This document shows positions 10,173 through 64,000 of a DNA stretch of 64,000 nucleotides, piece after piece (position 1 is the first letter of the stretch; every line of letters begins with the position of its first letter). Made by a program: the position numbers and the translations under genes. The stretch covers positions 2,512-66,511 of the forward strand of contig JBBCAW010000052.1 of assembly GCA_051382295.1 (NCBI GenBank). The letters are read 5' to 3'. Origin of the DNA: Bdellovibrionota bacterium FG-1. Its GTDB lineage: Bacteria; Bdellovibrionota; UBA1018. The notes under the pieces were generated by a model. That model was not told the origin of the DNA. It was given only the letters and a program-made list of their open reading frames with translations, and did no database searches.

Positions 10173-10174
10173 GA

Positions 10175-11884
10175 TCAGAGTCTCCTCGCCTGAATTTCTT
10201 CCTCGGACAATGCGCCTTTTTCGCCCACTTGGCCATCGCCTAATGCGGCGGCTTCCCTCGCATTTTGGGCCTCAAGCAAAGCATGAGCCTGATCCAGTTC
10301 CTGCTGGGTTGCATTGGCATCACGTCCGAGTAACTTGAGCAAACCTTCTTGCGCTTTTTTCTTGCGCGATTCGGGGGCCTTACTAATGCGACAGAGCCCT
10401 TCGACTAAAATCGGACCGAACTGCTCGATGTGACGAATTTTCTCTTCAAGCTCGTTGGCCTTATCTTCACGTCGAATATGCTTAGCAAGTTTTTGCCCCG
10501 CTTGAATCAGAGCTAAGCGGAGTTCCTCAACCAGCTCATCGGACGCATCGACCGTTTCTTTGGAGGCATTTTTGAACTTAATAAACGGCGAAACAATCGA
10601 AACCGCGATAATATAGGGGCCCTGCGGTAAACCGCCTTTGGGCTGAGCCAAACCATAAGTGCGCCAGTTAACCGACTCAATCGCGTGAACAATCGCACAT
10701 GCCGATTTATCAAATTGGAGCGGAACTCGATTAGCAAAACGTAAAACCTGAACCGCCGAATCAGCTTCGGCTTGCCGTTCCTCCAGCCGCGCCACCGCAA
10801 CTTCGACTTGCACCGGTTTAAAATCGCAAATGGCAGGCTTTCGCGACACAACCGCAAAAAAGTCGACCACCCCCAAGCGTTTAATGCTCTTAGACAGAGC
10901 CTCTTCGCCAATCGAGAGAACAGACTTCGTGGAAGGCGCCATCATCTTCATATTTTGAATGGCGATAAAAAGCGCCTTAAAGTCGGCGTCCCCACTTGAA
11001 TCGACCGATTTTTCAAGAATCGACCGTTTCAAGCCACCTTTAACCAAATCATTCAAAACGCCTTCATGGATCCGAGAAAAACCGCGTTTCAACCATTCGC
11101 CCACTTTGACACGACCAAAGAGGTGCGAATGAGCCATAAACTCACCCAACTTCATCGTATGAGGATGGGGTTCCGTCGCCTCTGGAATTTCTGGAATCGT
11201 CTGAGTCACCCGCTCAGCTGTATGCGACTCCAACTCGGGAAGCTTCCAATGCATCGTGACGTGAGGATTCACCAGGGTGCTGCCGTTGAGATAACTTAAA
11301 AGCCCGGCATCCCCATTGAGTTGAATACGACCATCAATGGAAAACTCCACCGACGTCCCATGAGGCCGATCCCAATCCAGGGTCTGACGGTTTTTGAGCA
11401 CACCCCTATTATTCTTGATATCGACTTCGACAGTGCAACTCACCGCTTTACGCATCGTCTTCGTTTTGGAAATCACGCGCGCTCCCGTGGCCGTCGTCAG
11501 CTGAGCCCAGGTAGTGGCAGCGGAAATCCCGATCCCCTGCTGACCCCGCGAACATCGCCCGCGACCAAACTTGGAACTGGCGAGATATTCGCCAAAAACC
11601 TTGGGAAGGTCTTCCTCTGAAATCCCCGGGCCGTTATCTTCCACCCGAATCATGACTTGATCCGAATTTTTCAAAGATCCAACGCCTATTTTTTCAACCG
11701 TAATCCAAATTTCCGGAAGAATGCCGTGCTCTTCGCACGCATCCAATGAGTTATCAACCGCCTCTTTGAGCGTTGTCAGAACGGCCTTAGTTTGTGAAGA
11801 GAATCCAACCTGTTGAAGGTTCTTAGAAAAATATTCCGCCGTGCTACTCGTCGTAATCTTATTGCTGCCTGCCGCTTTCGCCAT
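10175..11884 (-). CDS. top6B: DNA topoisomerase VI subunit B
   Basis: GHKL motifs KEAVDNSLDAC, DNGPGI, SRGQQGIGISAA; transducer RFANRVPL and PF-x-x-x-SKE. Confidence 0.93.
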   Translation of the reverse strand: MAKAAGSNKITTSSTAEYFSKNLQQVGFSSQTKAVLTTLKEAVDNSLDACEEHGILPEIWITVEKIGVGSLKNSDQVMIRVEDNGPGISEEDLPKVFGEYLASSKFGRGRCSRGQQGIGISAATTWAQLTTATGARVISKTKTMRKAVSCTVEVDIKNNRGVLKNRQTLDWDRPHGTSVEFSIDGRIQLNGDAGLLSYLNGSTLVNPHVTMHWKLPELESHTAERVTQTIPEIPEATEPHPHTMKLGEFMAHSHLFGRVKVGEWLKRGFSRIHEGVLNDLVKGGLKRSILEKSVDSSGDADFKALFIAIQNMKMMAPSTKSVLSIGEEALSKSIKRLGVVDFFAVVSRKPAICDFKPVQVEVAVARLEERQAEADSAVQVLRFANRVPLQFDKSACAIVHAIESVNWRTYGLAQPKGGLPQGPYIIAVSIVSPFIKFKNASKETVDASDELVEELRLALIQAGQKLAKHIRREDKANELEEKIRHIEQFGPILVEGLCRISKAPESRKKKAQEGLLKLLGRDANATQQELDQAHALLEAQNAREAAALGDGQVGEKGALSEEEIQARRL

Positions 11885-50596: not shown

Positions 50597-50956
50597 GGGC
50601 CCGTTCTGGTTTCGACGGGAGTATCGAAGTCCCAGATGCGTGTCGAGGTGACGCAGGCCTCGTAAAAAAGCGTCAAAATGTAATTGGCACTGCTGATTAC
50701 GCAATGGCCGCTTAATCGCTAGTCGATTCAAGCACCACGTTTTACCTGAGTTCTCCCATGACCCAGGCTAAAACGACATTCAGTGGGATAGTCCTTGGTT
50801 TCTCGCAGATGGACCAGGGGCGAAACTAAAGTCTGCGGAGATGAAGTGAACTTTGCCGGTGGAGGTCACGTCATTTATCTAAAACACTTGCTACACACGT
50901 AGATTCTGGCGATGGAGTGCCTCCGGACGAGAGTTCGATTCTCTCCGGGTCCACCA
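50597..50956 (+). ncRNA. ssrA: tmRNA; tag peptide (A)GTADYAMAA encoded at 50686-50715
   Basis: GGGCCCG...GGTTTCGAC 5' end; GAGAGTTCGATTCTCTC T-arm; CGGGTCCACCA 3' end with G3:U pair; tag ends in AA-stop. Confidence 0.95.
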
Positions 50957-50966
50957 ATCTTGGAAC

Positions 50967-50998
50967 GGCTCTCACAGAGGAATCTGTGGGAGTCTTTT
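50967..50998 (+). terminator. Intrinsic terminator after ssrA
   Basis: GGCTCTCACAGA-GGAA-TCTGTGGGAGTC-TTTT. Confidence 0.75.
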
Positions 50999-51185
50999 CA
51001 TTTCGGGTTGTTAGGATTCAAGCAGTTACGAGTTCATAGCAGCTTCGACATTTCCCGGTCAGTCGCGAGATTTCGGGAATCTCCTATTTCTTTCCTACAT
51101 TCTTCCTACTTTTCGGCCCGCTTCAAGCCGTGCGCAGCACGGAGAAAAGGCGGGAATATGTAGCGCAAATCAAATCGTAGAAATG

Positions 51186-51312
51186 AAAAAGCCCAGGGTT
51201 GCCGCCCCAGGCTTTTCAAACTTTACCGTCATCAGCTCCTACTCTTAGCAGATCGGGAAGCTGAATCTTTGAACTAACCGAAGTCGCATTGATGCGGCTT
51301 CTGGCCGGTACA
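51186..51312 (-). ncRNA. Candidate counter-transcribed RNA (ctRNA) antisense to the parA-rep leader
   Basis: Minus-strand promoter at 51319-51347 and minus-strand terminator GCCTGGGG-CGGCAA-CCCTGGGC-TTTTT. Confidence 0.5.
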
Positions 51313-51318
51313 TCTCCA

Positions 51319-51347
51319 TTCTTAATGAGACGTGCCGCCACTGTCAA
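51319..51347 (-). promoter_or_regulatory. Sigma-70-type antisense promoter
   Basis: TTGACA-N17-TAAGAA on the minus strand. Confidence 0.5.
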
Positions 51348-51364
51348 CACGAATGGAGATCAAC

Positions 51365-52207
51365 ATGAATCAATCACCGTGCCCAATAATTGCCGTCACG
51401 AATCAGAAGGGCGGAGTCGGAAAAACGACCACCGCCATCAACCTCGCACAAGCACTGGCGCTGCAAGACTTGCGCGTGCTGCTCGTCGACCTTGACCCCC
51501 AAGGCAACGCCACTCAGGGCGTTGGCATTCGCCTGGAGACGATACAGGGCTCGATCTCGGAGATGATCCGCGACCGCGCGCTCCCTACCGACCGCGTGAT
51601 CTACAAGGGTGACGGTCTCGACCTGATCCCTGCGACACCCCTGCTCTCGCGTGTTGAACGCGAAATGACCTCGCTGACCAACTCCGAGCTGCGCCTAGCG
51701 CAACGTCTTCAGCCGCTTCGCACGCAATACTCGGTGATCGTGATTGATACCCCGCCAACATTCGGACCGCTCATGAATTCGGCCTTGAATGCAGCAAGTC
51801 AGCTTATCGTGCCGGTGGATTCAAGCTACTTCGCGCTTATGGGCATTAAGGAGCTGCTGACCGAAGTTGAAGAGATCCAGCGTGGCACCAATCCTCGGCT
51901 CACAGTGCTGGGCTACCTCCTGACGCTTGTCGACCCAACGAACATCGCGAATCAAACCTGGGACACGCTGGTTGGTAACTTCGGCCCGGCGGTTTTTGAA
52001 ACCAAGATCAAGCGGTCGGTGAAACTTCGTGAAGCGCCCGCGTTAGGCAAGACGATCTTCCACCATGCTCCTGAGAGCACGGGCGCGAAGGACTACCTCG
52101 GCCTCGCCAACGAGGTGATGACGCGCCTCGGGATTGGTGAGGTCTCTTCTGATTCGAACTACCCCCGCCCTGCCCTTGCAGTGATCCAAGGAGCGGCACA
52201 TGAGTAA
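51365..52207 (+). CDS. parA: ParA/Soj-family ATPase
   Basis: NQKGGVGKTTT deviant Walker A, DLDPQGN, IDTPP, EAPALG; GGAGA RBS before ATG 51365. Confidence 0.93.
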   Translation: MNQSPCPIIAVTNQKGGVGKTTTAINLAQALALQDLRVLLVDLDPQGNATQGVGIRLETIQGSISEMIRDRALPTDRVIYKGDGLDLIPATPLLSRVEREMTSLTNSELRLAQRLQPLRTQYSVIVIDTPPTFGPLMNSALNAASQLIVPVDSSYFALMGIKELLTEVEEIQRGTNPRLTVLGYLLTLVDPTNIANQTWDTLVGNFGPAVFETKIKRSVKLREAPALGKTIFHHAPESTGAKDYLGLANEVMTRLGIGEVSSDSNYPRPALAVIQGAAHE

Positions 52208-53714
52208 AGCTGATCTAAAAGCCGCGATGGAGTCCCTACAAGTCAAGAAGCCGCTCAAGCTCCAGGACAAGCACCCGCAGTTCAAGGTTCCTGCCACTAT
52301 TTCGGACCCCACCTGGGTTGCTGGGGAAACCCAGGTTGATCCAAGACCCCAGGTTGCTGTGGCAACCGAGGTTCCTCTACAAACCAAGGTTCCCGTAGCA
52401 ACCCCGGTTGCTGCACCGACCGAGGTTGCTGGAACAACCCAGGTTCCCGTGAGAACCCCGGTCGCTGTACAAACCCGGGTTGCGCCACCAACCCAGGTTC
52501 CTACAGAAACCCAGGTTGCTGAGCAAACCCCGGTCGCCATGGAAACCCTGGTTTCCGTACCGACCCCGGTTCCCACACCAACCCAGGTCGGCACACAAAC
52601 CCCGGTTCCTGGAGCAACCCAGGTGATCACCGAAGGGGACGGCACGCGAAGCGCTAGCGACCAGGACAGCTCGGTCACGCTCGAAGCCCAGACGGCGCCG
52701 AAGCTCCACCAGGGCTACACGCGGCTCCCCAACAGCATTCTCATGCGTATGGCCGCCGGTGATCTGATCCGAAGCGAGATGCAGATCCTGCTTTTGATCG
52801 CCCGATTCACGATCTCGTTTCAAAAGCGCTACGCGCCGTTGTCAAAGACGGTGCTGGAGCGTCAGAGCGGCCTGCGTGGACCCGCCATTCTCCAGGCCAT
52901 CTCTGATCTCCAGGCGAAGGGGCTCATCGAAAAGATCCCCGGTGACCAACACCGGCCAAATCAACTTGGCTTGGTCTTCGAGGACGAATGGGAGTTTTTT
53001 TCAAAATCCAAGGCCGCAACCACCTCGGTTCCTGCACAAACCCAGGTTGCTCCAGCAACCCAGGTTCCTGTGGCAACCCCGGTCGCTGCGGGAACCCCCG
53101 CCCCGGTTGCTGTACCGACCCCGGCGGGGGTTGCTCCAGCAACCCCCTTTAAAGATATTCTAAAATATAAAAACAACTCTCTCTCTGAACTTCCGGCGCA
53201 ATTGCAGAAATACTTCGGTGAACTCAAGCCCGCGAAAAAGAGAGATGGCGAGTGGCAGGCTTTTCAAAGCCTTCAGGGGGACTATCAGGCCGAAGACATT
53301 TCGGAGTGCCTGGAGCTGTTGCAGGAGCGAGGAATCAAGCGCCGAGGGCCAAACGGCGAAGAATCGCAGCCGTGCCATTCGCCAATGGCTTACCTCTCGA
53401 AGGCGATGAGCGATATCTTCGGCGAAGTCGAATTACGCAGGCAGAAGGTTCGCGAGCGCATCGAGCGGGAGCAGCGGGACACCGAGGCCGCTCGGGAGCT
53501 GCAGGAAAACGACGAACGCGAAGCCGCTGAGTGGGCGGTGAAAGAGCGGGCCTTTGCCGAAGCTCTACCCGAGGAGGATCGGCAGCACGAAGTGATTGCC
53601 GGATTGCTTGGAAATATGCCGTTTCGACCGAACAGTCAGGTTGGGCGGCGAATGGGCGTAGGCCTTTGGTGGGACGGTCTCTCGGAAAACGAGCGTCTGG
53701 AAGTCTTGGGGTAG
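52200..53714 (+). CDS. Putative replication initiator, lambda-O-like winged HTH, with repeat-encoded linkers
   Basis: GYTRLPNSIL...EMQILLLIARFTISFQKR...LS...SGL...QAISDLQAKGLIE resembles the phage replication protein O N-domain; internal repeats plus AT-rich tract; overlaps the parA stop. Confidence 0.7.
   Translation: MSKADLKAAMESLQVKKPLKLQDKHPQFKVPATISDPTWVAGETQVDPRPQVAVATEVPLQTKVPVATPVAAPTEVAGTTQVPVRTPVAVQTRVAPPTQVPTETQVAEQTPVAMETLVSVPTPVPTPTQVGTQTPVPGATQVITEGDGTRSASDQDSSVTLEAQTAPKLHQGYTRLPNSILMRMAAGDLIRSEMQILLLIARFTISFQKRYAPLSKTVLERQSGLRGPAILQAISDLQAKGLIEKIPGDQHRPNQLGLVFEDEWEFFSKSKAATTSVPAQTQVAPATQVPVATPVAAGTPAPVAVPTPAGVAPATPFKDILKYKNNSLSELPAQLQKYFGELKPAKKRDGEWQAFQSLQGDYQAEDISECLELLQERGIKRRGPNGEESQPCHSPMAYLSKAMSDIFGEVELRRQKVRERIEREQRDTEAARELQENDEREAAEWAVKERAFAEALPEEDRQHEVIAGLLGNMPFRPNSQVGRRMGVGLWWDGLSENERLEVLG
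52310..52625. repeat. Array of 18 palindromic units with an 18-bp period (AACCNNGGTT core) inside rep
   Basis: Cores at 52310, 52328, 52346 ... 52616, counted by hand. Confidence 0.9.
53021..53186. repeat. Second palindrome array plus AT-rich tract (candidate replication origin)
   Basis: Cores at 53021, 53039, 53057, 53075; perfect GGGGGTTGC-TCCA-GCAACCCCC at 53126-53147; AT-rich 53148-53186. Confidence 0.75.
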
Positions 53715-53880
53715 CAGCAGAAACGATCAATCAGCCACGGTGTCGGGCGGATTATTAAGCGACTCGCGCAGCAAATCCCGCATGCATCAAACGAGATCGA
53801 TTTGGAAACCAGTTTCTGCCCGTAGAATATCTGCGACGCAGAAGGTCAGCCACCTCACTGAAATAACTATGGAATATTGT

Positions 53881-53908
53881 TTGACGGCCTGTCAGTCATT
53901 GCTATAAA
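53881..53908 (+). promoter_or_regulatory. Sigma-70-type promoter of the HTH-BREX operon
   Basis: TTGACG-N16-TATAAA; GACGGC/GCCGTC inverted repeat overlapping it. Confidence 0.5.
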
Positions 53909-53957
53909 TTGCCGTCTGCTGGCAAAGTTTGTCCAAGATTTCATCTCAGGGGGATGA

Positions 53958-54218
53958 GTGACGATGACTCATGACGAGATCCTTACGTTACCGGAGGTCG
54001 CCGAATTACTGCGCATCGCGGAGAAGACTGTCTACTCCCTTGCGCAGAAAGCCGAGCTGCCGGCGTTCAAGGTGGGCGGGCAATGGCGCTTCAGTCGAGC
54101 GGCAATTGACTCCTGGATACAGGGACGGACATTGCCGCAGACGTTTGTGCCTAGAACTACGGGCAAAGATGTGCTGGCACCGGAACGCGCCAACGCTAAG
54201 CCACGGAGCAGGCAATGA
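53958..54218 (+). CDS. Excisionase-family (MerR-like HTH_17) DNA-binding protein
   Basis: ILTLPEVAELLRI...TVY...LPAFKVGGQWRF...IDSW. Confidence 0.88.
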   Translation: MTMTHDEILTLPEVAELLRIAEKTVYSLAQKAELPAFKVGGQWRFSRAAIDSWIQGRTLPQTFVPRTTGKDVLAPERANAKPRSRQ

Positions 54219-55084
54219 CTGTCATGAACGACGAGGCTGCATCATTTCATGCGGGATCGGAGAAGACGGATATAGGAGCCCACGGCATGGAAAAAGATGC
54301 ACAATCCACCCGGCATTTAGGTCGCGACATCGACATCTACAGCGCCCGTAACAGTTCAAAAGGTGCGCTAATCGTTGAGACCCGGGCGGTTTTCCATGCG
54401 CTTGCAAACGGCAGATCGCTCTCTCAAGTTCGAGACGCTTGCCACTCAGGAAAATTATTACGCCAATCGGCGCGAGAAACGAGGGGTCGCATCTGGGAGG
54501 CGATCCACTGGAGATTTTTTGCATGGAATCCACCAGCGTGGGTGATCGCCGATCTTTGTCATGCGTCAAGCAGTGACGCCACGTCGTCAGCTTTTGTTGG
54601 CCTTGTATATCTTCATAATGCCCGACGTGACCGCCTCACGTTCGACTTCGTGACGAACGAACTCTATGCTCTCCGCGCGAGTAACAAGAGTGAAGTACGT
54701 CGAGACCGTGTTATCGACTTCCTTGCTAATGCTTCCGACTCTCCAACTACACGCTGGCGCGAGAGCACACGGATAAAGCTTGCCGGCAATGTCCTGACCG
54801 CCCTGCGGGACTTTGGGCTCCTCACAGGCGTACAACGAAAGCTATTAAATCGTCCGGTCATCCCAATTGAAGTCGCGCTTCATTTGTGTCGGCTTCTCTC
54901 CGCTGAGGGATTAAGGGGTCGCGCACTTCTGGAAGCTCGGGACTGGCACCTCTTTTTCTGGGAACCACACGACATATCACTTGCTCTAGCGCAGCTCGCC
55001 CAGCGTGGCGATATCCGCTTTGAACGATCGGGACGTACAGTCATGCTAGATATTCCCGAGCATCCGCAGGGAGCGACCCCATGA
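54215..55084 (+). CDS. brxA: BREX protein BrxA (DUF1819-like)
   Basis: YSARN, W-x-EST-x-x-K...L...LRDFGLL motifs; first gene of the BREX order. Confidence 0.75.
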   Translation: MTVMNDEAASFHAGSEKTDIGAHGMEKDAQSTRHLGRDIDIYSARNSSKGALIVETRAVFHALANGRSLSQVRDACHSGKLLRQSARETRGRIWEAIHWRFFAWNPPAWVIADLCHASSSDATSSAFVGLVYLHNARRDRLTFDFVTNELYALRASNKSEVRRDRVIDFLANASDSPTTRWRESTRIKLAGNVLTALRDFGLLTGVQRKLLNRPVIPIEVALHLCRLLSAEGLRGRALLEARDWHLFFWEPHDISLALAQLAQRGDIRFERSGRTVMLDIPEHPQGATP

Positions 55085-55653
55085 GTGTCGCGGGAGATTG
55101 GGAATGGAAGCTACGCGAAGCAGTAGAGAGATTGCGCACTCGCTACGAACACATCGGTCGCAAAACCGGCGCCCCCTTTCTCGCGGTCGTCTATCCGCCA
55201 GAAGTTGAGAAAGCGCTATTCAAGGAATGGCGAACTCTAGCTGCGACGCTTGAGCCGGAGTTATCAATCCGAACAGTAGATGTCCTCGACGTCACATCAA
55301 GTATAGTCCGACAGTTCGGCGTGGACGCCCTCGTTGATTCGATGAAGGAACCGATGCCTGGTTCAGATCCAACATCGGAACTCGGATCGATGTGGACCAA
55401 CGCCGTAGCAACAAGTGTCCGCGAAGCAGCTCGAAAGTCAGGAAGCGCCCGTCCGGTGGTAGTGCTGGAGAGGCTTGCAGCCCTATATCCCGCGTCAGGT
55501 CCACGCGCGCTCATGCAAACACTTTGGGATAGCGACCATGCCGCACTAGATGGGCCGGTTGTCCTATTCATTCCGGGATTACTCTTGGAAGCCCGTGTGT
55601 ATCGTTTTGTCGGACAAATTGAGGAATTCATGTATCGAGGCGACATCCTATGA
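55081..55653 (+). CDS. brxB: BREX protein BrxB (DUF1788-like)
   Basis: VYPPEVE, ALYP, VVLFIPG and YRG motifs; position between brxA and brxC. Confidence 0.78.
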   Translation: MSVAGDWEWKLREAVERLRTRYEHIGRKTGAPFLAVVYPPEVEKALFKEWRTLAATLEPELSIRTVDVLDVTSSIVRQFGVDALVDSMKEPMPGSDPTSELGSMWTNAVATSVREAARKSGSARPVVVLERLAALYPASGPRALMQTLWDSDHAALDGPVVLFIPGLLLEARVYRFVGQIEEFMYRGDIL

Positions 55654-55681
55654 TGTCCGGCAAGGAACGAGGAGAAAAGCT

Positions 55682-58600
55682 ATGAAACTCGCAGAAATTT
55701 TTGAAACAAAAATCGAAGAAAAAATCGACCCGGTCATTAAGGTAGGCGAGGTACAGGATGAAGCTAAACTCGCGTCGGAGATCGGCGCTTATGTCGTCAC
55801 ACCCACTATCGAAAAATATATTGACGAGTTTCTTGAGCATTTCACGGACACCTTCCTAAGCAGGACCACCGAGATTGGCTCGTGGATCTCGGGCTACTTC
55901 GGATCGGGAAAGTCGCATCTCGCCAAGATTTTGTCCTTGCTGGTTGAGAATCGAACGCTCACTGGTCATGCGGCCACCAAACGTTTCGAGGGAAGAGTTC
56001 CGCATGCAGCGCTCCACCGTAGCTCAATTTTGCGCAGTCTCGGACGCATGGATCAGTGTGGAACACAGGTCCTTGCCTTTAATTTGAATACGCTTGTGGA
56101 CAGTAAAACCACGCCATTACCTCGCCTTCTTCTCTCTCAGTATTATCAGTCGCGCGGGTACAGCTCTAACCTCTTATACGCAAGGGTGATCGAGCAGGAA
56201 ATCGATCGACGCGGAAAACTCGAAGCTCTCCACAATGAAGTGGCTGCACTCGCAGATCGCCCCTGGGTCGACATTCAAAAGAACCCAGGTTTTTACGCAA
56301 AACATCTCTATAAAGCGGCATGTAAGGTCGCTCCAGACGCGTTCTCCAGCCCCGAGGAAGTCGCTCAAGCGCTCAAAAACGCCGAAAAGGGCGACCTCTA
56401 TAATGCGCAGTTCCTTGTTCAAACGATGTTGGACGATCTCGAAATACGTAAGCAGGAAACTAAAAAACCGGCCCGCTTTCTCTTCGTGCTCGACGAGTCC
56501 GGCCAGTGGATCGAAGACGATGCGGGACGCCTCGCACAGCTCCAGGCACTTGTTGAAGAGGCATCCATCAAGGGCCAGGGGCGGATCTGGATATTTGTCA
56601 CCACCCACGAAGACATGGGCGCAATTTTCCAAAACGCACGGGCACTTCAAGCAGACATGAAGAAGATCGAACCCCGCTTCATTTACAAGTGGTCCCTTAC
56701 CACTGAGAATATCGAACTGGTCCTGGAGGACCGTATCTTCAAAAAGAAAATTGCGGGTAAGGACGCAGTTGTGAAAGCGTATGAAGCAGCACCGGGCGTG
56801 CTGCGTGGGCTTGGTGAGTTAGCCAACACTAGCCAGAAGCTCCCTAGCTGTGAGCGCGAACGGTTCGTCACCTTTTATCCATTTTTCCCCTATCAGATTC
56901 ACCTTATCCCAGAGATCGTGAAGAGCCTGCGTTCCAGGGGTGGTCGCGGAGAACAGCTCTCGGGGTCCACCCGCACGTTGCTTGCAATTACGCAGGACAT
57001 CCTTCGTGCCGGACGCAGACCCTACTTAAAACTGGAAGTCGGCGAAATCGTCCCATTCGACGAAGTCTACGGCAACCTTTCCGGAGAAGGGGAAGTGAGC
57101 CCCGATGTGCGGCGCGAGTTGTCGCGCATCGAGGAAATTGTCCCGGCGGCTTGCGCGCTCACTCGCCGCATCGCAGAGGTACTGTTCCTGATCCGCGAGA
57201 TATCCTATATACCACGGACAATTGACAACATTGCACGCCTCTTAGTCGAGTCAACAAGCGATGATCTGCCCACACTGGTGGCGCGCCTCCAGCCAGAACT
57301 TGACAAGCTCATCGCCGCCAAGATGCTCACTCGGATTGGGGATGAGTACGAATTTCTCACAGGTGAGCGACGCACATTCGAGGACGAGGTCGCGACAGTG
57401 GCTGCGCAAATCAAACAGCAGGACCGCGAGGCAGGGCTTGCAAAGCACTTCGTCTACGACTCCGACAAGAAGGTCAACCACCTCCGATCGCTCGTTGGAT
57501 TTGAAACTGTGCAATTTAAAGACGCTGAATTTGAAGTGCGCATCAACATGGATGGGACCGTTGCACTGCGGAACGGGCACATCGAAGTACGCATGTTCTC
57601 GCCGTTGGCTGCCCTCAGCGGAACAAAGGTTCCCGAGCTGGAGGACCAGAGCCTGCGTGCGGATGAACAACATACTATTTTCGTACTCTGCGATCGCGTT
57701 TTAGGTTTCGACCAGGACCTCAGCCGCTTTCTCGCTATGCGCGAAGTCGTAAGTGCATGGAAGGGCGACCCGCATAAATCAGAGGAGGCACGCAAGCTGG
57801 CCTCAGAGCGCGAAACCAACGACCTCGACAAGCTGGAGCGTCGGGTCCGGGACGGGATCAAAGTTGGCATCAAACAGGCTCACGTCATTTTCCGGGGCTC
57901 AAGTCGTGCCCTCTCACCGCGTTCCGGACAGACGCCAGGCGAAACCCTTCGCGCAGAACTCTCGACGTTTTGGCCAACCCTTTATCCTAAGTTCGAAAAG
58001 GTGCCAGTACGAATTGCGCAGGAGCAGAAGGCGATCCTTGACGTTCTCAGCGGAGAAAAGAACCTCGCTCCAGATGTCAAAGCGCTGCGGCTTTTCGATC
58101 AAGCCGGCGCCCTCGACCCAAATTCCCCCTTGCTCGACGCCACGCGAATATTCTTGGCGAGCCGCCAGAACAAAAAGGAGCGGACCCTGGGAAAAGACAT
58201 CCTTGAGGAATTTGGCATCCCACCATACGGATGGGATCGGAACGCGGTCCGGGTCGGGGTGGCGGCGTGTGTGAGAGCTGGAACGATCAAGGTCCTGATC
58301 GGCAAGATGCCGCATACGAACCCCTCCGACCAGGCATTGCAGAAAGCTCTTCGTGACAGCCGCGAGTTTGAGAGAGTCGAGCTAGTGCTCGAAGATTCGG
58401 ATGTTAGCCCGGACGAATTAGAAGGGGCGCGCACGCTATTAATGAAACTCACTGGCAAGCGAAAGATCGACGAGACACCTGCGGCCTTGCACGAGGCAAT
58501 GGATGCTTTCGGCAAAGAAAAGCTTGGGCGCGCAGAAAAGTTGATTGACTGGGCTGATGCGGCCGGGCTCCCCCGTCCCAAGGTTTTCGACGAAGGAAAG

Positions 58601-59350
58601 GAAGCACTGGAAAGTGTCCTTGCCCTCTCAAACCCGGTACACCGAGTTAAAGAGATTTACACCCGCGCAGAGGACCTCAAACGTGGGGTCGAGTCCATTG
58701 ATCAGCTCGTTACATTTCGGGAGAAGTGGGGCCTTGCGTTCACCGAACTCAAGAGCTTCGCGACACAGCTCAGTGGTATTGACCATTTGCTTCCGTCGGG
58801 AGGCACCATTCATGGTTTTATCGGCGAGTACGAAGCAGCACGAGCTAGCGCTCGGTTTGCCGAACCAGAGATTTGGAAGGTGATCCAGGGAGCCAAGGCG
58901 AGTGCGGCGCTTGAACTCCAAACGATGCTCAGCGGCTGGCGTGACGAAGCAAGGCAGATCATCAGGGAGACACTTGATCGGCTCCCCGAAGATCTCAAGC
59001 AACAGAAGCTGGAGCAGGAACTTATTAAAGAAATGACTGTTCCTCTCGACGGATTTCTTGCAGCACTTGATACCGAGAGCGATCCGGTCCGAGTTGCGGC
59101 GCTATCTGTGCGCGCAAGACGCCTTGTAGACGAACTGGCTGCTGCCCTCCGCAAAGAGGCAGAGAAGCGAGCACCGAAGCCGCCGGCAAATGAGCCGGCC
59201 AAGCCTGCTCGGGAGACGCGCCGAGTGCGATTCTCTGACGTGTCCACCGTTCGACACGTTCGTTCAGAAACTGAATGGGAGGAGTTAAAGAAAAAGCTGG
59301 ATGAGCGGGTGCGGACTCTGTTGCGCGACTTCGAAGTGGAGTTCGACTGA
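55682..59350 (+). CDS. brxC: BREX P-loop ATPase BrxC
   Basis: IDPVIKV, WISGYFGSGKSH Walker A, LDESGQ Walker B, YPFFPYQ, PPYGW; GAGGAG RBS before ATG 55682. Confidence 0.92.
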   Translation: MKLAEIFETKIEEKIDPVIKVGEVQDEAKLASEIGAYVVTPTIEKYIDEFLEHFTDTFLSRTTEIGSWISGYFGSGKSHLAKILSLLVENRTLTGHAATKRFEGRVPHAALHRSSILRSLGRMDQCGTQVLAFNLNTLVDSKTTPLPRLLLSQYYQSRGYSSNLLYARVIEQEIDRRGKLEALHNEVAALADRPWVDIQKNPGFYAKHLYKAACKVAPDAFSSPEEVAQALKNAEKGDLYNAQFLVQTMLDDLEIRKQETKKPARFLFVLDESGQWIEDDAGRLAQLQALVEEASIKGQGRIWIFVTTHEDMGAIFQNARALQADMKKIEPRFIYKWSLTTENIELVLEDRIFKKKIAGKDAVVKAYEAAPGVLRGLGELANTSQKLPSCERERFVTFYPFFPYQIHLIPEIVKSLRSRGGRGEQLSGSTRTLLAITQDILRAGRRPYLKLEVGEIVPFDEVYGNLSGEGEVSPDVRRELSRIEEIVPAACALTRRIAEVLFLIREISYIPRTIDNIARLLVESTSDDLPTLVARLQPELDKLIAAKMLTRIGDEYEFLTGERRTFEDEVATVAAQIKQQDREAGLAKHFVYDSDKKVNHLRSLVGFETVQFKDAEFEVRINMDGTVALRNGHIEVRMFSPLAALSGTKVPELEDQSLRADEQHTIFVLCDRVLGFDQDLSRFLAMREVVSAWKGDPHKSEEARKLASERETNDLDKLERRVRDGIKVGIKQAHVIFRGSSRALSPRSGQTPGETLRAELSTFWPTLYPKFEKVPVRIAQEQKAILDVLSGEKNLAPDVKALRLFDQAGALDPNSPLLDATRIFLASRQNKKERTLGKDILEEFGIPPYGWDRNAVRVGVAACVRAGTIKVLIGKMPHTNPSDQALQKALRDSREFERVELVLEDSDVSPDELEGARTLLMKLTGKRKIDETPAALHEAMDAFGKEKLGRAEKLIDWADAAGLPRPKVFDEGKEALESVLALSNPVHRVKEIYTRAEDLKRGVESIDQLVTFREKWGLAFTELKSFATQLSGIDHLLPSGGTIHGFIGEYEAARASARFAEPEIWKVIQGAKASAALELQTMLSGWRDEARQIIRETLDRLPEDLKQQKLEQELIKEMTVPLDGFLAALDTESDPVRVAALSVRARRLVDELAAALRKEAEKRAPKPPANEPAKPARETRRVRFSDVSTVRHVRSETEWEELKKKLDERVRTLLRDFEVEFD

Positions 59351-62300
59351 TGGATTTCAAGAGTACACTTCGGGCAATCACGCTCGAACTTCGACACGAG
59401 CTTGAAGGCAAGTACGACCCCGAAGGGGGGTGGCATCCGGGTGACTTAGAACGGCGCCTCGCAGCCATAGGTGTCCGTCGGGATCGCTCCTCCGTCCCTG
59501 TCGATGAGCTACCACACCTGTCTGTGGAGGACCGTGAAGCGCGGAGAGTCGTGGATGCATTCCTCACGAGCCGTACTGAAGCAGATCAAAGCCGCGAGGC
59601 CGCTATTGCCGATTTTGTCCGCGAAGCGGCCTACGGATGGGCGAATCGCCTATTAGCTCTACGCTGTATGGAAGCGCGCGGACTAATAGACGAAGTGATC
59701 CTCCTGAAGGAAACATACGGGGGCCGCTCGCTTCAACATCAGCGTCTAGCAAAGAAGGAACCGGAGCGATGCGCGGGCGAAGACGAAGGTCTGCTTGCGG
59801 CATTATTCGATGAGTTCACTCGACGCGCAAAAGAGCTTCCACTTCTCTTTGACCCAAAAGCGTCCGAGGTAGCTCTTCGTCCCGCGGTCGCCGCGCTCAA
59901 ACGTTGTATAGGTCTTCTGTCGGGAACCATCGCCGTAAAGGGGCAGGAGGCGGCGACTGACGAAGTGTTTACGGCACCGGACGCCCTGGGATGGACCTAT
60001 CAGTACTGGAATACGGAGGAGAAGGCCCGAGTATTCGAGAAAGTGCGTACCGACCAAGCCAAGATCCAAGGAACGGAGATAATTCCAGCAACTTGTATTT
60101 ACACCGACCCCTATATAGTGAAATTTCTCGTTCAAAATTCTCTAGGAGCGATGTGGATGGGCATGAACCCCGGTTCACATCTCTGCGAAACGTGGGATTA
60201 CTATGTTCGTGGCGCAGATCGAGCGCCCGCAACAAAGAAGGCTGTTTCGGAGATCACGTTCCTTGATCCCGCCTGCGGAAGCGGCCACTTTCTCATTGAG
60301 GCATTTGAAGTCTTCTATTCACTGTACATCGAGGAAGCAAAGATCACCGAGCCGGCCAAAATCTGTGCCTCTATTCTCGAACGCAATCTTTACGGAATTG
60401 ACATCGATGAGCGAGCAGTACAGATCGCGGCACTCGCATTGGTGATGAAGGCCAAGGAAAAAGCCCCGGACTTCGTTCCCCGTCAGGTAAACATCGTGGC
60501 AACCAATATTCGGCTGCCCAACAGCAAAGAGCATCTAGAGACATTTCTACACAAGCACCCAGAGGACGCCCCGCTAAAACCTGCGCTTCTCGCGATATTT
60601 GAGGGTCTATCCCATGCGGACGAGCTTGGGTCTCTCCTTCAGATTGAGGAACCGGTAGAGCGAGAACTCCAAGTCCTCAAAGCAAAATACGAAACTGCGG
60701 GCGTGCCAATGGAACAGCAGGGCCTTTGGAAGGAGTATGCAGTTCCAATCCAGGGCAAGCTTCCGCTTGGAATTGCGAGTTATTCTCTTTGGAAGCAGAA
60801 TGTCGTAAATCGTCTGCACCAGCACTTCAGCGCGGAGGCTCAAGAAATAGATCTCGCAACAGCTTTTTTCGGTGAGGCTGTCAGCAAAGGCCTTTCCCTC
60901 ACGGACATGCTCACGCGGCGCTATGATGTTATTGCCGCGAACCCACCCTACATGGGCTCAAAGAACATGGGTCCTGTGTTGAAGGGCTATATACAGCGAC
61001 ACTTTCCTGCGGGAAAGCGAGATATTTACGCAGCATTCATTATGCGATCCATTAACCTAGCTAATATCGGCGGTCGGGTCGCGGTAGTTAGTCAGCAATC
61101 GTGGATGTTCAACAAGTACTTTCAGAAACTGAGATCGGGGAACCCGAACTCCAGTGTCCTAGATGCAACATCTGTTGAATGCTTAGCTCATCTCGGACCG
61201 AATGCGTTTGCAGATCTATCAGGGGAAGTTGTCTCGGCGGCAGCAATTGTATTATCGATCCACGTTGACCGACGCCACCATATATTAGCGTTTCGCATGA
61301 CAGATCTGGATGGACCCGCTCTCAAAGCACAATCTCTCGCAGACACGGTGAGGGTTGATGATTCAAAGCGCCGATTTCGGGTCGCACAAGTTGATATAAC
61401 TCGGTTGCCTGGTGCGCCCGTCGTCTACTGGCTCAGAGAATCACTTCTGCAGCTCATTCATCGTTTGAAGCGGCTCTCTTCCACTTCAACTGTATGTGAA
61501 GGTCTTCACCCAACGGATACGCCGAGATTTGTTCGCTATTGGTGGGAGGCAACGAACGAGAAGCGCTGGGCTTGGTATTCGCGTGGTGGTGAATTCCGAC
61601 GCTGGTCAGGCCTGAACCGCACGAAGATCGATTGGAGTGTATCAGGCGACAGACTGCGCTTAACTGGAAAAGCGATCATCCCTTCTGCCGACAGGTATTT
61701 TACCCCTGGTATTACCTATACGGATTTTGCGTCTGGTACAATGGCTGCACGCATTCTAGATGCGAGTCACATTTTCAGTGATGCTGCACCCGCGATCTTC
61801 CCTGAGCGGGCATCCACGCAAGCAGTTCTCGCAACAGTTAATTCCAGATTCTTCACTGTCGTGATGCGAGCGCTCTCACCTAGCCCTTTCCACTTTCGAA
61901 CAGGATATGTTGCTATGGCTCCGTTTCCTGATCTTCCTTTTCCGACCCCAGTCGACCCCATCGTCGACTGTATCTTGCAACTCGCCAGAGTCGAAGCTTC
62001 GCGCGATCCAACCGAAGGGACCTTTCGGCCTTACCGTATCATAGCGGCGAATTCACTCCGTGATGCTTACCGAGCGGATACAGTCGAAGTCGAGGCTTGT
62101 GCAAGCGTACTTCACGCGCTTGAGGGAATTGTGGAGCGAAAAGTTTTCACAGCCTACGGCATTGAAAACGAGGATCTTGCAGCTGTACTTGATGAGACCG
62201 GCACACCTGCTGGCTGGTATCCCACGATTCTGGGTTACGACGCATTTCCACCGCTACCTGATATCATCACGTTGCCACAAGACCTTATCGAACAGATTAT

Positions 62301-63534
62301 TCAGGGAGCACGTCGCACAATGCCACCAGAAGATCTAGCCAATCTCAAACGTCAACTGCGCGAACTCTATGAGGCTGGGCCAAGCAAGAGCATGAGCAAC
62401 GGGACCCAAGAAGGCGCCGACGAAATTGAAGAAGACCTGGACGATGACGTGGACGTTCCGGGCGCTGGCAATCCCATCCCGGCTGAGACATTTATTGACG
62501 AGCTATCTCGTAAGCTTCAGATAAATCCAATTTCGATCTTCTGGCTACTCAAGGAGCTTCGAGACCAGGAGAAAGTCGTTTGTCCATCCGAGCTACGTGG
62601 TTTCAGCGAAAACTACGTATCCTTTATTGTTCTGCACCTCCTCGGCCACCGACAATCGAGCGAACAACCAGACGACAATGCTGAGCCAAACAGAAAAATT
62701 CAAGACCTTATTATTCCCATTAGCGACGGAACTGGCGAAACAAAACTCCTGGCACGAGTTCGTGAAATAATCGCGGAGGATTTTGGTACTAAGAGCGTGC
62801 AGACGTTCGAGCGTGAGTTCCATGAAAGCGTTGGCAAGCATCTTGGGGAGTGGCTAGAAACCGAGTTCTTTAAACGACACATATCTCAGTTTAAAAAACG
62901 GCCCATTGTCTGGCAGCTTGAAAGCACGCCAGGCGGAAGCGGCAAGCGGCAAGGTCGCCGCTCCGTGCGAAAAACATCCGCGTTTTCGTGCCTCGTATAT
63001 TATCAGTTACTGGATTCGGACCTCCTCCCGAAGCTCCGTACACAGTATGTCGGCCCCCTCCGAGTTAGCATTCAAACGGAATTACGAAGTTTGGAGACGA
63101 TGACGAGCAGAACGGCGGAGCAGGACGCTCGCCGTTTGGAGTTGGACAAAACTATGGAAGAACTCAAGGCGTTTGATGCTCGACTCGATCAAGCAGCCTC
63201 AGTAGGATTCGCGTCAGATTCGCTCGATATGCTAGTAACCAGCGAGCCGCTTGATAAGTGGATATCGCAGGGGGAGCAATTCGCCCCACCTGTTTCTAAA
63301 GATGCCTTTCTGGCACAAGAACGGAAATACGACCCGGGCCTTAACGATGGCGTACGCGTAAACATTGCACCCCTCCAGCGTGCAGGGTTGCTCACCACCG
63401 ACATTCTTTCCAAAAAGGACGTTGAAAAGGCCCTCTCTGACCGCGCCGAGTGGCGGGCTGACGAACGACGGTGGTGCAGAGAAGGGAAACTTCCACGGCC
63501 GGGGTGGTGGGATGCGACAGGAGTCGGGCGATGA
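59350..63534 (+). CDS. pglX: BREX adenine DNA methyltransferase PglX
   Basis: NRLLALR-x-ME, GW-x-YQYWN, LVQNSLG, DPACGSGHFL, NPPYMG and DGVRVN motifs. Confidence 0.93.
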   Translation: MDFKSTLRAITLELRHELEGKYDPEGGWHPGDLERRLAAIGVRRDRSSVPVDELPHLSVEDREARRVVDAFLTSRTEADQSREAAIADFVREAAYGWANRLLALRCMEARGLIDEVILLKETYGGRSLQHQRLAKKEPERCAGEDEGLLAALFDEFTRRAKELPLLFDPKASEVALRPAVAALKRCIGLLSGTIAVKGQEAATDEVFTAPDALGWTYQYWNTEEKARVFEKVRTDQAKIQGTEIIPATCIYTDPYIVKFLVQNSLGAMWMGMNPGSHLCETWDYYVRGADRAPATKKAVSEITFLDPACGSGHFLIEAFEVFYSLYIEEAKITEPAKICASILERNLYGIDIDERAVQIAALALVMKAKEKAPDFVPRQVNIVATNIRLPNSKEHLETFLHKHPEDAPLKPALLAIFEGLSHADELGSLLQIEEPVERELQVLKAKYETAGVPMEQQGLWKEYAVPIQGKLPLGIASYSLWKQNVVNRLHQHFSAEAQEIDLATAFFGEAVSKGLSLTDMLTRRYDVIAANPPYMGSKNMGPVLKGYIQRHFPAGKRDIYAAFIMRSINLANIGGRVAVVSQQSWMFNKYFQKLRSGNPNSSVLDATSVECLAHLGPNAFADLSGEVVSAAAIVLSIHVDRRHHILAFRMTDLDGPALKAQSLADTVRVDDSKRRFRVAQVDITRLPGAPVVYWLRESLLQLIHRLKRLSSTSTVCEGLHPTDTPRFVRYWWEATNEKRWAWYSRGGEFRRWSGLNRTKIDWSVSGDRLRLTGKAIIPSADRYFTPGITYTDFASGTMAARILDASHIFSDAAPAIFPERASTQAVLATVNSRFFTVVMRALSPSPFHFRTGYVAMAPFPDLPFPTPVDPIVDCILQLARVEASRDPTEGTFRPYRIIAANSLRDAYRADTVEVEACASVLHALEGIVERKVFTAYGIENEDLAAVLDETGTPAGWYPTILGYDAFPPLPDIITLPQDLIEQIIQGARRTMPPEDLANLKRQLRELYEAGPSKSMSNGTQEGADEIEEDLDDDVDVPGAGNPIPAETFIDELSRKLQINPISIFWLLKELRDQEKVVCPSELRGFSENYVSFIVLHLLGHRQSSEQPDDNAEPNRKIQDLIIPISDGTGETKLLARVREIIAEDFGTKSVQTFEREFHESVGKHLGEWLETEFFKRHISQFKKRPIVWQLESTPGGSGKRQGRRSVRKTSAFSCLVYYQLLDSDLLPKLRTQYVGPLRVSIQTELRSLETMTSRTAEQDARRLELDKTMEELKAFDARLDQAASVGFASDSLDMLVTSEPLDKWISQGEQFAPPVSKDAFLAQERKYDPGLNDGVRVNIAPLQRAGLLTTDILSKKDVEKALSDRAEWRADERRWCREGKLPRPGWWDATGVGR

Positions 63535-64000
63535 CAGAACTCAGTTTTAGGGTGTGGCTTAGAAATGAAGTGACAACAGTCCTTAACCGCAAGACGACGC
63601 CACCCCCGCTCCTGCTTTGGTGCGACCCGGACGACGTATGGCGTGACTTGCTCCGCGCCGCCGCCGAGGACGGAGCCTTTGATCTCTGGGCTGACGGTGA
63701 GCACGAACTCGTACTTCGGGAGCGCCTTCATACCTCGCCCCTGTCTCCACGCGTCGTTTGGCTTCCGTCCGGTGCAGACGAGATCAGCTATCTCAAGGTT
63801 TTCGAGTTTCAAGCTGAACGGGTATGGACGGAGTCCCTCGTGTCCGCACTTGCTCGGTTTGGTGTCGAGCTAGCGCGGGACCACGAGGCAGGGGTCAGAC
63901 AACTCTTACCGGCATATGCGAAAGAGTGCATCGATCAGCCTCGTTCGGCTTGGCGCGAACTCACGCCAGGGACTGCAAAGTCGATGCTGGTGGACGAGGA
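63531..64000 (+). CDS. pglZ: BREX PglZ, N-terminal part (runs off window)
   Basis: Open frame from ATG overlapping the pglX stop: MTELSFRVWL...LLLWCDPDDVW...; position after pglX. Confidence 0.7.
   Translation, partial: MTELSFRVWLRNEVTTVLNRKTTPPPLLLWCDPDDVWRDLLRAAAEDGAFDLWADGEHELVLRERLHTSPLSPRVVWLPSGADEISYLKVFEFQAERVWTESLVSALARFGVELARDHEAGVRQLLPAYAKECIDQPRSAWRELTPGTAKSMLVDE

Follow-up and report, generated by a model that had tools for sequence, protein, structure and literature searches.

A repetitive peptide written into a replication-initiator gene raises the question of whether selection maintains the peptide or the DNA that encodes it, and what that DNA would be for. We addressed this question for rep, a gene on a 64,000-nucleotide stretch (hereafter the window) of contig JBBCAW010000052.1 of Bdellovibrionota bacterium FG-1 (contig C52, positions 2512-66511, in an assembly of 4.44 Mb, 158 contigs and 51% GC). 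The rep gene (52200..53714, + strand) encodes a 504-amino-acid initiator with a lambda-O-type winged helix-turn-helix, assigned from PF04492, PHROG and BLASTP matches, and an earlier note on the window had described DNA palindromes in the part of rep that encodes the N-terminus of the protein. Our comparisons indicate that selection acts on a short DNA core that occurs in two arrays, one on each side of the part that encodes the winged helix, and that both arrays are probably iterons read by the winged helix of the same gene.

Two in-frame arrays of a short palindrome lie within rep

Array 1 (52311..52625) consists of 18 units of 18 bp, 17 of which contain a perfect ACCnnGGT core, and encodes a linker of the form V-x-x-x-T-x that is predicted to be disordered. 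A second array (array 2; 53022..53125), absent from the earlier note, follows the winged-helix part at the position that iterons occupy in lambda; it has four perfect ACCnnGGT cores with an 18-bp period (at 53022, 53040, 53058 and 53076) and two degenerate units (at 53100 and 53118). All ACCnnGGT cores of both arrays are in frame 0, and their spacing is 18 bp except for one 36-bp step over a unit with proline. As 18 is a multiple of 3, all sites fall in the same reading frame, and the array becomes a hexapeptide repeat, T-x-V in this gene.

The codon regularities that had drawn attention to array 1 were largely as described. The codon after the threonine position ends in G in 18/18 units while encoding W, Q, E, K, P, R or L, and valine is nearly always GTT or GTC (GTT 14, GTC 3, GTG 1). 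Threonine had been described as always ACC, which holds for 17 units; the 18th (52347) has CCC and thus proline. The motif AACC-NN-GGTT, said to recur every 18 bp, is exact at only 10 of 18 junctions, and it is the shorter ACCnnGGT that is present at 17 of 18. The 16-bp palindrome GGTTSC-N4-GSAACC reported between the cores is perfect in three array 1 units and has one mismatch in six more, but it is a weak consensus in the family and is not conserved pair by pair. The window contains 15 matches to AACCnnGGTT (0.94 expected; 0 of 100 shuffles reached 15) and, with one mismatch allowed, 15 matches to GGTTSC-N4-GSAACC (0.87 expected).

Given the codon usage of 1595 long open reading frames (ORFs) of this genome, in which ACC accounts for 0.39 of threonine codons, the probability that all 21 T-x-V units of the gene use ACC is ~1e-8.6, and the probability that all 21 variable codons end in G, given their amino acids, is ~1e-8.8. 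Units within one gene share ancestry and are not independent, so that a comparison across relatives is the real test.

An antisense reading frame of 211 codons (52043-52678, - strand) is open across array 1 and also reads T-x-V; it is open because the cores are palindromic, and we regard it as a by-product with no evidence of a gene. When the window was searched with Rfam, a transfer-messenger RNA (tmRNA) alone passed, and matches of microRNA models to the arrays (E 0.4-0.8) were noise.

Selection acts on the DNA core in relatives of rep

A word-indexed search with Rep residues 150-504 recovered 53 homologous proteins, from Bdellovibrionota or Oligoflexia-type metagenome genomes where a source is named. 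A scan of one genome per species yielded 42 loci (individual loci are designated L with a number), and a metagenome scan yielded 24 more. Homologues carry repeats on both sides of the winged helix. Codons were counted in 12 genes of the repeat class of the window gene (class 1), taken from the 42 genome-collection loci and two copies from the window's own genome (WIN, C143). Left out of these counts were a remnant with an in-frame stop (L007), loci with split or shifted frames (L010, L024, L015), other repeat classes, loci cut by a contig end and the metagenome loci. The 12 proteins are 44-88% identical to that of the window gene.

In these genes, the threonine of the T-x-V repeat is ACC in 186/190 units, compared with 106/288 threonine codons elsewhere in the same ORFs (Fisher 5e-49), and the x codon ends in G in 182/190 units, compared with 1541/4480 codons elsewhere (3e-70). 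The x position takes 13 residues that an NNG codon can specify and other residues only twice, one Y and one H. By contrast with these fixed positions, the third base of the valine codon and the base before ACC vary freely. The invariant element of the family is therefore the 8-bp core ACCnnGGT, with the remaining positions carrying 0.1-0.6 bits. We also tried an extended dyad beyond this core; its pairwise complementarity was at the level of shuffles at all but one position pair, and we rejected the 16-bp palindrome as a feature of the family.

The core ACCnnGGT is confined to the rep ORF, with flanking DNA at chance level. Each of the 12 class-1 relatives examined has an array 2, of 1-5 cores, and array 1 has 8-20 cores in relatives, the number of units differing among them. 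The homologue check that the earlier note had proposed thus came out in favor of its expectation, as the DNA palindrome is retained in relatives whose amino acids differ. As judged from codon usage across the family, these data show that the target of selection is the DNA core ACCnnGGT, repeated every 18 bp, and that the peptide is a passenger.

In one relative (L046, 1135-2724), a single unit (PVTAPT) has recently been expanded in tandem approximately five-fold within array 1, indicating that arrays grow by duplication of units.

The site changes together with the winged helix

Other clades of the family keep the same layout (N-terminal peptide, array, winged helix, array, AT-rich tract and C-terminal domain), but differ in the site and in the peptide that it encodes. 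In L014, L016, L017 and L018, the core is ATCCnnGGAT, which is read as A-TCC-NNG-GAT and encodes S-x-D with the same 18-bp period. Serine is encoded by TCC in 38/44 units of this clade, as against 14/152 serine codons elsewhere, and the x codon ends in G in 42/44 units. L021 has a mixture of A and T at the outer core position, and L019 has the core ACCTnAGGT in three frames, in which it encodes T-L-G, P-P-E-V or D-L-R-S. A further group (L025, L029, L032, L033, L037 and L038) has a different helix-turn-helix and a palindrome of ~23 bp, mostly in 2-3 copies before the domain and 1-3 after it. These motif switches (T-x-V, S-x-D and other frames) prove the direction of causation, namely that the DNA site dictates the peptide.

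The sequence of the turn and recognition helix is uniform within a class and differs between classes, so that site type tracks the recognition helix, while ParA, the product of the gene upstream of rep (see below), is 50-87% identical across all repeat classes. Different classes also coexist in single assemblies: L001 (class 1) with L025 (class 3), L009 and L011 with L032, and L010 with L014. Such coexistence would hardly be expected if the sites were read by a host factor, by ParA or by a restriction enzyme. The co-variation of site and winged helix is the pattern expected of iterons that have co-evolved with their initiator, to judge from these alignments.

Array 2 and an AT-rich tract resemble the lambda origin

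The assignment of Rep to the lambda O group comes from several searches. PF04492 (Phage_rep_O) matches residues 169-245 with 31.6 bits (cut-off 28.7), the PHROG family "replication initiation O-like" matches at 1.3e-9, and lambda O residues 25-65 align to Rep residues 169-209 by BLASTP (E 2e-6); the TIGR01610 match is below its cut-off (26.4 versus 45.5 bits). An AlphaFold2 (AF2) model places the winged helix-turn-helix domain at residues 157-269 (52668..53006, + strand), with a predicted local distance difference test score (pLDDT) of mostly 79-89 and lower at both ends, and a C-terminal helical domain at residues 333-504 (53196..53711, + strand; pLDDT 71-95, mostly >85). Residues 31-155 and 269-326 are predicted to be disordered (pLDDT <50, ~30 in the array 1 segment), and these two low-confidence segments coincide exactly with the two repeat arrays.

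Foldseek found nothing for Rep in the PDB at E 0.001 or better; its weak rows were all winged-helix proteins, namely MarR, the RepA_N initiators 4pt7, 4pql and 5kbj, and DnaD-N. By Pfam and NCBIfam, Rep is not a sequence member of the RepA_N or repC families, and a Pfam profile search gave no match to a Rep_3 initiator. The C-terminal domain contains an invariant HSPM motif (CHSPM in nearly all relatives); it had no match in Pfam, NCBIfam or PHROG and none in the PDB by Foldseek.

Directly after array 2 lies a 45-bp AT-rich tract (53148..53192) with a GC content of 0.22, compared with 0.59 for the gene, which encodes FKDILKYKNNSLSEL and is a candidate DNA-unwinding element. The 45-nt stretch with the lowest GC content of the ORF is found directly after array 2 in 29/32 genes, covering all classes, with L004, L027 and L037 as the exceptions. 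The peptide that this tract encodes is rich in K, N, I, Y and D, conserved in composition and variable in sequence, and ends in (S/T)LS.

This arrangement is that of the lambda origin, whose iterons and AT-rich tract are described as lying in the middle of gene O in the account of lambdoid origins in PMC7466680. The lambda record has four 18-bp iterons, with starts 20, 24 and 23 bp apart, and an AT-rich tract inside gene O after the winged helix; the four annotated iterons agree with the number given in the earlier note. The segment of lambda O that is encoded by the iterons and the AT tract aligns with the equivalent segment of the Rep protein at L010 (BLASTP, E 5e-4), and this is the best alignment of that pair. 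Like lambda O, Rep belongs to the winged-helix family PF04492 and its gene contains dyad-symmetric sites after the winged helix, followed by an AT tract. We suggest that array 2 and the AT tract are best read as an origin homologous to ori-lambda and as a likelier origin than array 1.

The two systems also differ. The lambda iterons have irregular starts and therefore fall in different frames, whereas the strict 18-bp period of the ACCnnGGT sites of rep places them in one frame and produces the hexapeptide repeat. The rep gene has a long array (8-20 cores) before the winged helix, to which lambda has nothing comparable, as well as a conserved N-terminal peptide, and it is coupled to parA, unlike lambda O. 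No P-like loader gene follows rep, the C-terminal halves of Rep and lambda O have no sequence similarity by BLASTP, and rep lies in a tRNA/tmRNA-integrated island of Bdellovibrionota and not in a lambdoid phage. For Stx (Shiga toxin) phages, the origin section of PMC7466680 describes six iterons, the two extra ones adding 13 residues to O.

The long array is linked to parA and to a conserved N-terminal peptide

Upstream of rep lies parA (51365..52207, + strand), which encodes a Walker-type partition ATPase of 280 amino acids (PF13614, 1.1e-49; PHROG ParA-like, 4e-59). The rep start lies 8 nt before the parA stop, so that the genes overlap. In the genome collection, parA is upstream of rep and translationally coupled to it in 29 of the 42 loci, and several of the other loci are truncated by a contig end. 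The genome has five ParB_N genes, none of which is on C52 or on C143 and C60, the contigs that carry the other copies of the module. The earlier note had likened the repeat to the geometry of chromosomal parS sites. We consider this likeness superficial, given that the contig has no ParB_N gene and that the conserved core is only ACCnnGGT and varies between clades. The change of motif with the winged helix while ParA is conserved also argues against a host ParB as the reader of the sites.

Residues 1-30 of Rep (52200..52289, + strand) form a conserved N-terminal peptide, delineated by alignment A1 and the AF2 model, with a helix at residues 3-12. This peptide (~25 residues in the family) is conserved even where the winged helix has been replaced, and it is a candidate for a ParA-contacting tail. 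When a ParA dimer with ATP was modelled in complex with Rep residues 1-40, the prediction scored 0.60 (best control, 0.24), with at least 73% of contacts agreeing between runs and a partner pLDDT of at least 57, which weakly favors such a contact. The mark used for these predictions was reached by 58/80 solved complexes and 2/110 mismatched pairs, and at a score of 0.60 or below by 7 of those 80 and by both of the passing mismatches.

Loci in which the module is split or reduced bear on the role of array 1. In L010 (3962-5951), an ORF of its own beside parA encodes the peptide and a class-1 winged helix and contains arrays 1 and 2, and a lambda-type Rep that follows it carries the origin. In L024 (4000-5427), the parA-adjacent ORF has the N-terminal peptide and ACCnnGGT arrays without a class-1 winged helix, and a second Rep again follows. 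The second Rep of both loci has three iterons, each one base off lambda iteron 1 as printed in PMC7466680, with an AT tract next to them. L024 looks like the product of a deletion between the two arrays of an L010-like arrangement. Two clean parA-less relatives, L027 and L030, have neither the peptide nor array 1 and keep the AT tract and the C-terminal domain. The 24 metagenome loci nearly all have parA or are cut at a contig end, and so did not enlarge the parA-less comparison. Together, the coupling to parA, the absence of a nearby ParB_N gene, the conserved peptide, the joint absence of peptide and array 1 from L027 and L030 and the split in L010 point to a role for array 1 with ParA, as far as gene content can indicate it.

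A remnant of the module lies directly after a tRNA-His gene in L007 (3920-5107); it has no parA and no N-terminal peptide, retains four upstream units and has an in-frame stop just before the AT tract.

A candidate antisense RNA lies opposite the parA leader

All classes share a conserved leader of ~180 nt ahead of parA. On the opposite strand of this leader we found a candidate gene for an antisense (counter-transcript) RNA of ~125 nt (51186..51347, - strand), with a promoter, hairpins and a terminator. The promoter has a -35 element TTGACA (51347-51342) and a -10 element AAGAAT (51323-51318; TAAGAAT-like), separated by a spacer of N17-18 and recovered by a scan with 10/12 matches; the terminator stem (51212-51191) is followed by a run of T. 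The TTGAC of the -35 element is invariant in 22 relatives, with the final A in 21/22, and compensatory changes were present in 12/19 predicted pairs of the hairpins. No Rfam family matches the element. A counter-transcript RNA of this kind is typical of plasmid replicons.

A model for the two arrays and its alternatives

From these data, we propose that both arrays are iterons, in frame, for the winged helix of the gene that contains them, and that this gene is part of the maintenance module of an island; we consider this reading probable. Binding of the sites by Rep dimers is the part that we regard as most secure and as very likely. It is also likely that array 2 and the AT tract serve as the origin of the excised element, by homology to ori-lambda. 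In this scheme, Rep dimers on array 2 would open the AT tract, with their C-terminal domain bringing in the host helicase. For array 1, we tentatively propose, at slightly less than an even chance, that it is a centromere and that Rep is the missing ParB-like adaptor. Array 1 would load ~18 Rep dimers, whose N-terminal peptides, on disordered tethers of 120 residues, would engage ParA. The same array might serve copy control by titrating or handcuffing Rep, in addition to this role or in place of it, and Rep bound within its own transcription unit would limit its own synthesis. If both assignments are combined, a single gene would hold the whole cis apparatus, origin and centromere, in its own frame, and its product would be an initiator fused to a ParB-like adaptor, giving a two-gene cassette without intergenic sites. 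The same winged helix would then read both arrays, and array 1 would itself encode the tether of the peptide. We hold this combined proposal to be possible, with the balance somewhat against it.

Several observations weigh against parts of this model. The chief of them is that L024 keeps 12 perfect cores although it lacks a class-1 winged helix in cis, which would have to be explained by a recent deletion or by a reader that acts in trans. The invariant core amounts to 3-bp half-sites 2 bp apart, which is short and oddly spaced for a winged-helix dimer, and the alternative dimer site, GGT-N10-ACC, has weakly conserved inner positions. DnaA boxes are absent near the arrays (12 matches in the window versus 9.3 expected), the nearest DnaA-box-like match, with one mismatch, being at 49405. 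No helicase-loader gene follows rep, the next gene being an HTH_17 gene and then a BREX (bacteriophage exclusion) set. A genome-wide search with k-mers taken from the final 60 nt of the tmRNA gene, and blastn-short against the rest of the contig, gave no convincing attachment-site (att) repeat, so that excision, the state in which an origin would matter, is putative. For the partition role, the prediction of a contact between ParA and the peptide is weak, passes of this kind are more often wrong than right without a strong prior, and the parA-less comparison consists of two clean loci and the remnant L007, which retains its four upstream units. In the C60 copy, an extra ORF of 90 amino acids lies between parA and rep (L044, 4914-5186; RHH_5 match at E 0.2 only) and could be a separate centromere-binding protein or an antitoxin. 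Finally, all relatives come from metagenome-assembled genomes.

The strongest competing explanation is that array 1 is a copy-number control or incompatibility locus that titrates Rep or handcuffs origins and is no centromere, with ParA using another adaptor or acting non-specifically. In P1 and F, auxiliary iteron arrays lie beside rep, so that control and origin iterons flank it, and the two arrays here flank the DNA-binding part of the gene in a similar manner. Array 1 has four times the site number of array 2 and no AT tract, an element that is mostly integrated needs tight repression of its origin, and the weak peptide prediction and the extra small ORF after parA in C60 fit this explanation as well. 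However, parA is coupled to rep with no ParB-type gene present, titration offers no obvious role for a conserved N-terminal peptide on a long tether, parA, peptide and array 1 are all missing from L027 and L030, and L010 retains peptide, arrays and winged helix as a gene of its own beside parA. We therefore judge copy control as the sole role of array 1 to be rather unlikely, while noting that the two roles are not exclusive and that copy control fits the geometry equally well.

Readings in which Rep is not the reader, or in which DNA is not the target, fit the data much less well. The palindromes could be bound by a host factor, by ParA or by a restriction-modification or methylation enzyme, since many enzyme sites are short palindromes like this core (CCNNGG-like and CCTNAGG-like cores are similar to type II sites) and since the perfect cores of L024 persist without the class-1 winged helix in cis. 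But site type follows the winged helix and not the host, with different classes in single assemblies, ParA is conserved while the sites change, the sites are limited to the rep ORF with a fixed 18-bp period, and the lambda-type Rep of the family carries lambda-type iterons, all of which make a reader other than Rep improbable. Still less probable, and already contradicted by the codon counts and by the reading of the core in several frames, is selection for the repeat as a disordered T-x-V linker, with the regularity of the DNA arising from codon bias or from recent tandem duplication and concerted evolution. The predicted disorder of the segment, the variable number of units and the five-fold expansion in L046 would agree with it; synonymous positions, however, are fixed against the codon usage of the same genes, the x position takes the 13 NNG-codable residues (the Y and the H excepted) with G as third base, the core is invariant across genes that are 44-88% identical while the positions between cores carry 0.1-0.6 bits, and the peptide switches to S-x-D or to other frames while the palindrome stays. 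A constraint on the mRNA (its structure or an RNA-binding factor) or from the antisense frame at 52043-52678 is equally remote. That frame is open over its 211 codons, and GGU and ACC of different units could pair; but an ACC-NN-GGU hairpin is impossible with a 2-nt loop, and antisense coding would constrain AC- and GT- and leave the third base of the threonine codon free on both strands, whereas that base is fixed. The two-fold symmetry of the core instead points to double-stranded DNA that is read by a dimer.

The interpretation offered by the earlier note is accordingly retained in part. An array of DNA sites in coding sequence, a peptide that serves as a tolerated linker, here predicted to be disordered, and a replication-initiator gene, here of the lambda O type, all agree with our results; the likeness to parS does not, and array 2 and the AT tract had been missed.

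Relation to known replicons and partition systems

The earlier note did not recognize the arrangement as a described replicon architecture. Origins or iterons inside initiator genes are, in fact, described for lambda and Stx phages (in the origin section of PMC7466680) and for plasmids, where the passage on origins in PMC3155836 presents an origin embedded in the rep coding sequence, as in pAD1, pSK1, pSK41 and repC, as uncommon, though not exceptional. The repABC replicons resemble the present module in having a partition ATPase gene and rep in one operon, an antisense RNA and an AT-rich tract within repC that is required for replication. They differ in having a separate ParB (RepB) and no recognizable iterons in repC, whereas here there are two iteron arrays and no ParB. 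The traits of classical iteron plasmids such as P1, F and pPS10, namely a Rep_3 initiator and DnaA boxes, are not found here.

Type Ib partition loci, such as TP228 parFGH, pSM19035 delta-omega and pB171, combine a small ParA and arrays of short repeats with a centromere-binding protein whose N-terminal tail is flexible. The present module shares with them a small Walker ParA without an N-terminal helix-turn-helix, a partner gene directly downstream, many tightly packed short sites and a conserved N-terminal peptide before a disordered tail. It differs in that the partner is a 504-amino-acid winged-helix initiator and not a small ribbon-helix-helix protein, and in that the sites lie within the partner's own coding sequence.

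Among integrated elements, integrative and conjugative elements (ICEs) can replicate and partition, as stated in the relevant part of PMC4489591, and soj of PAPI-1 is reported in the portion of PMC2704930 that deals with it to be needed to maintain the element and to be expressed from the circular form. The layout is also comparable: parA/soj lies next to the tRNA end of PAPI-1 according to PMC2704930, and such elements, like the present one, have a tRNA-type gene with parA after it at one end and integrases at the far end. Unlike in PAPI-1 and ICEs, no conjugation genes were seen here in the stretches scanned, and the initiator and cis sites are of a different kind.

Relatives of Rep were absent from 72,556 plasmid and 50,697 phage records, and a literature search found no description of an in-frame, hexapeptide-forming iteron array or of this Rep family. 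What is new is the strict codon-phased period, the number of sites, the second array that precedes the DNA-binding domain, the combination of ParA coupling, absence of ParB and a conserved N-terminal peptide, site switches that drag the peptide with them, and the family of elements. The module extends the lambda design of an origin inside gene O to ~20 sites, with a second array before the DNA-binding domain and ParA coupling without ParB, and it is an unusually clear natural example of DNA sites under selection that fix synonymous positions and determine a repeated peptide. For annotation, it is a caution that repeats in initiator genes which look like low-complexity "linkers" can be cis sites. 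If functional, the module would offer a small replicon and partition cassette for a group of bacteria in which few genetic tools exist, and if Rep is indeed a fused initiator and adaptor, part of a protein sequence would be a by-product of selection on DNA sites in a cassette that serves a family of tRNA/tmRNA-integrated defence islands of Bdellovibrionota.

The island and its genome setting

The module stands at the left end of an island in the order tmRNA gene, candidate antisense RNA, parA and rep. The tmRNA gene (ssrA; 50597..50956, + strand) was found by ARAGORN and by Rfam (RF00023, 181.9 bits); it forms the left boundary of the island and is its likely integration site, and a terminator-like hairpin follows it (50967-50994). 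To the right of rep is a gene of the HTH_17/excisionase family (53958..54218, + strand; PF12728, 2.5e-17; TIGR01764; MADS1-like model), followed by a full BREX set, with BrxA, BrxC and PglX and, further along, PglZ and BrxL. Further cargo includes DUF2130, an AAA_13 ATPase, a helicase-nuclease and RhuM, and two tyrosine recombinases lie on the opposite strand at the far end. With no att repeat found, the right end is placed by these two integrase genes only, giving a size of ~29 kb (window 50597-64000 plus L043 1-15803). No conjugation genes were seen in the island stretches scanned.

The same setting recurs in relatives. A tRNA or tmRNA gene is present in 17/32 relatives scanned and, among parA-bearing loci with at least 500 nt of upstream sequence, lies just upstream on the same strand in 16/23. 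The gene varies (His, Arg, Gln, Cys, Asn, Leu and tmRNA), as does the cargo 3' of rep from locus to locus. Three copies of the module exist in the genome of the window, next to tmRNA (C52), tRNA-Gln (C143) and tRNA-Cys (C60). On this evidence, the antisense RNA, parA and rep constitute a putative maintenance module of a family of integrative islands next to tRNA/tmRNA genes. The module was previously unannotated and marks tRNA/tmRNA-integrated islands in Bdellovibrionota, here with BREX.

The two extra copies are at L045 (C143; 4503-6814) and L044 (C60; 3501-6154). The ParA of C143 has a deviant Walker A motif (RGGVEKT, not KGGVGKT) and may be inactive. Contig C60 ends within array 2, suggesting that the repeats probably break the assembly. 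Six sequencing runs contained at most 0.07 of the sampled words.

We discarded GC skew, whose cumulative minimum falls at ~52-57 kb, as evidence for an origin, because the left 50 kb of the window are ordinary chromosome and because the skew switches where the island begins and gene orientation changes. This left part carries housekeeping genes, including those for ferrochelatase, AccD, RsmI, a methyl-accepting chemotaxis protein (MCP), transporters and topoisomerase VI. Subunits A and B of the latter (Spo11/Toprim and Topo-VIb transducer) are encoded by adjacent genes at 9006-11884 (- strand) on this bacterial chromosome.

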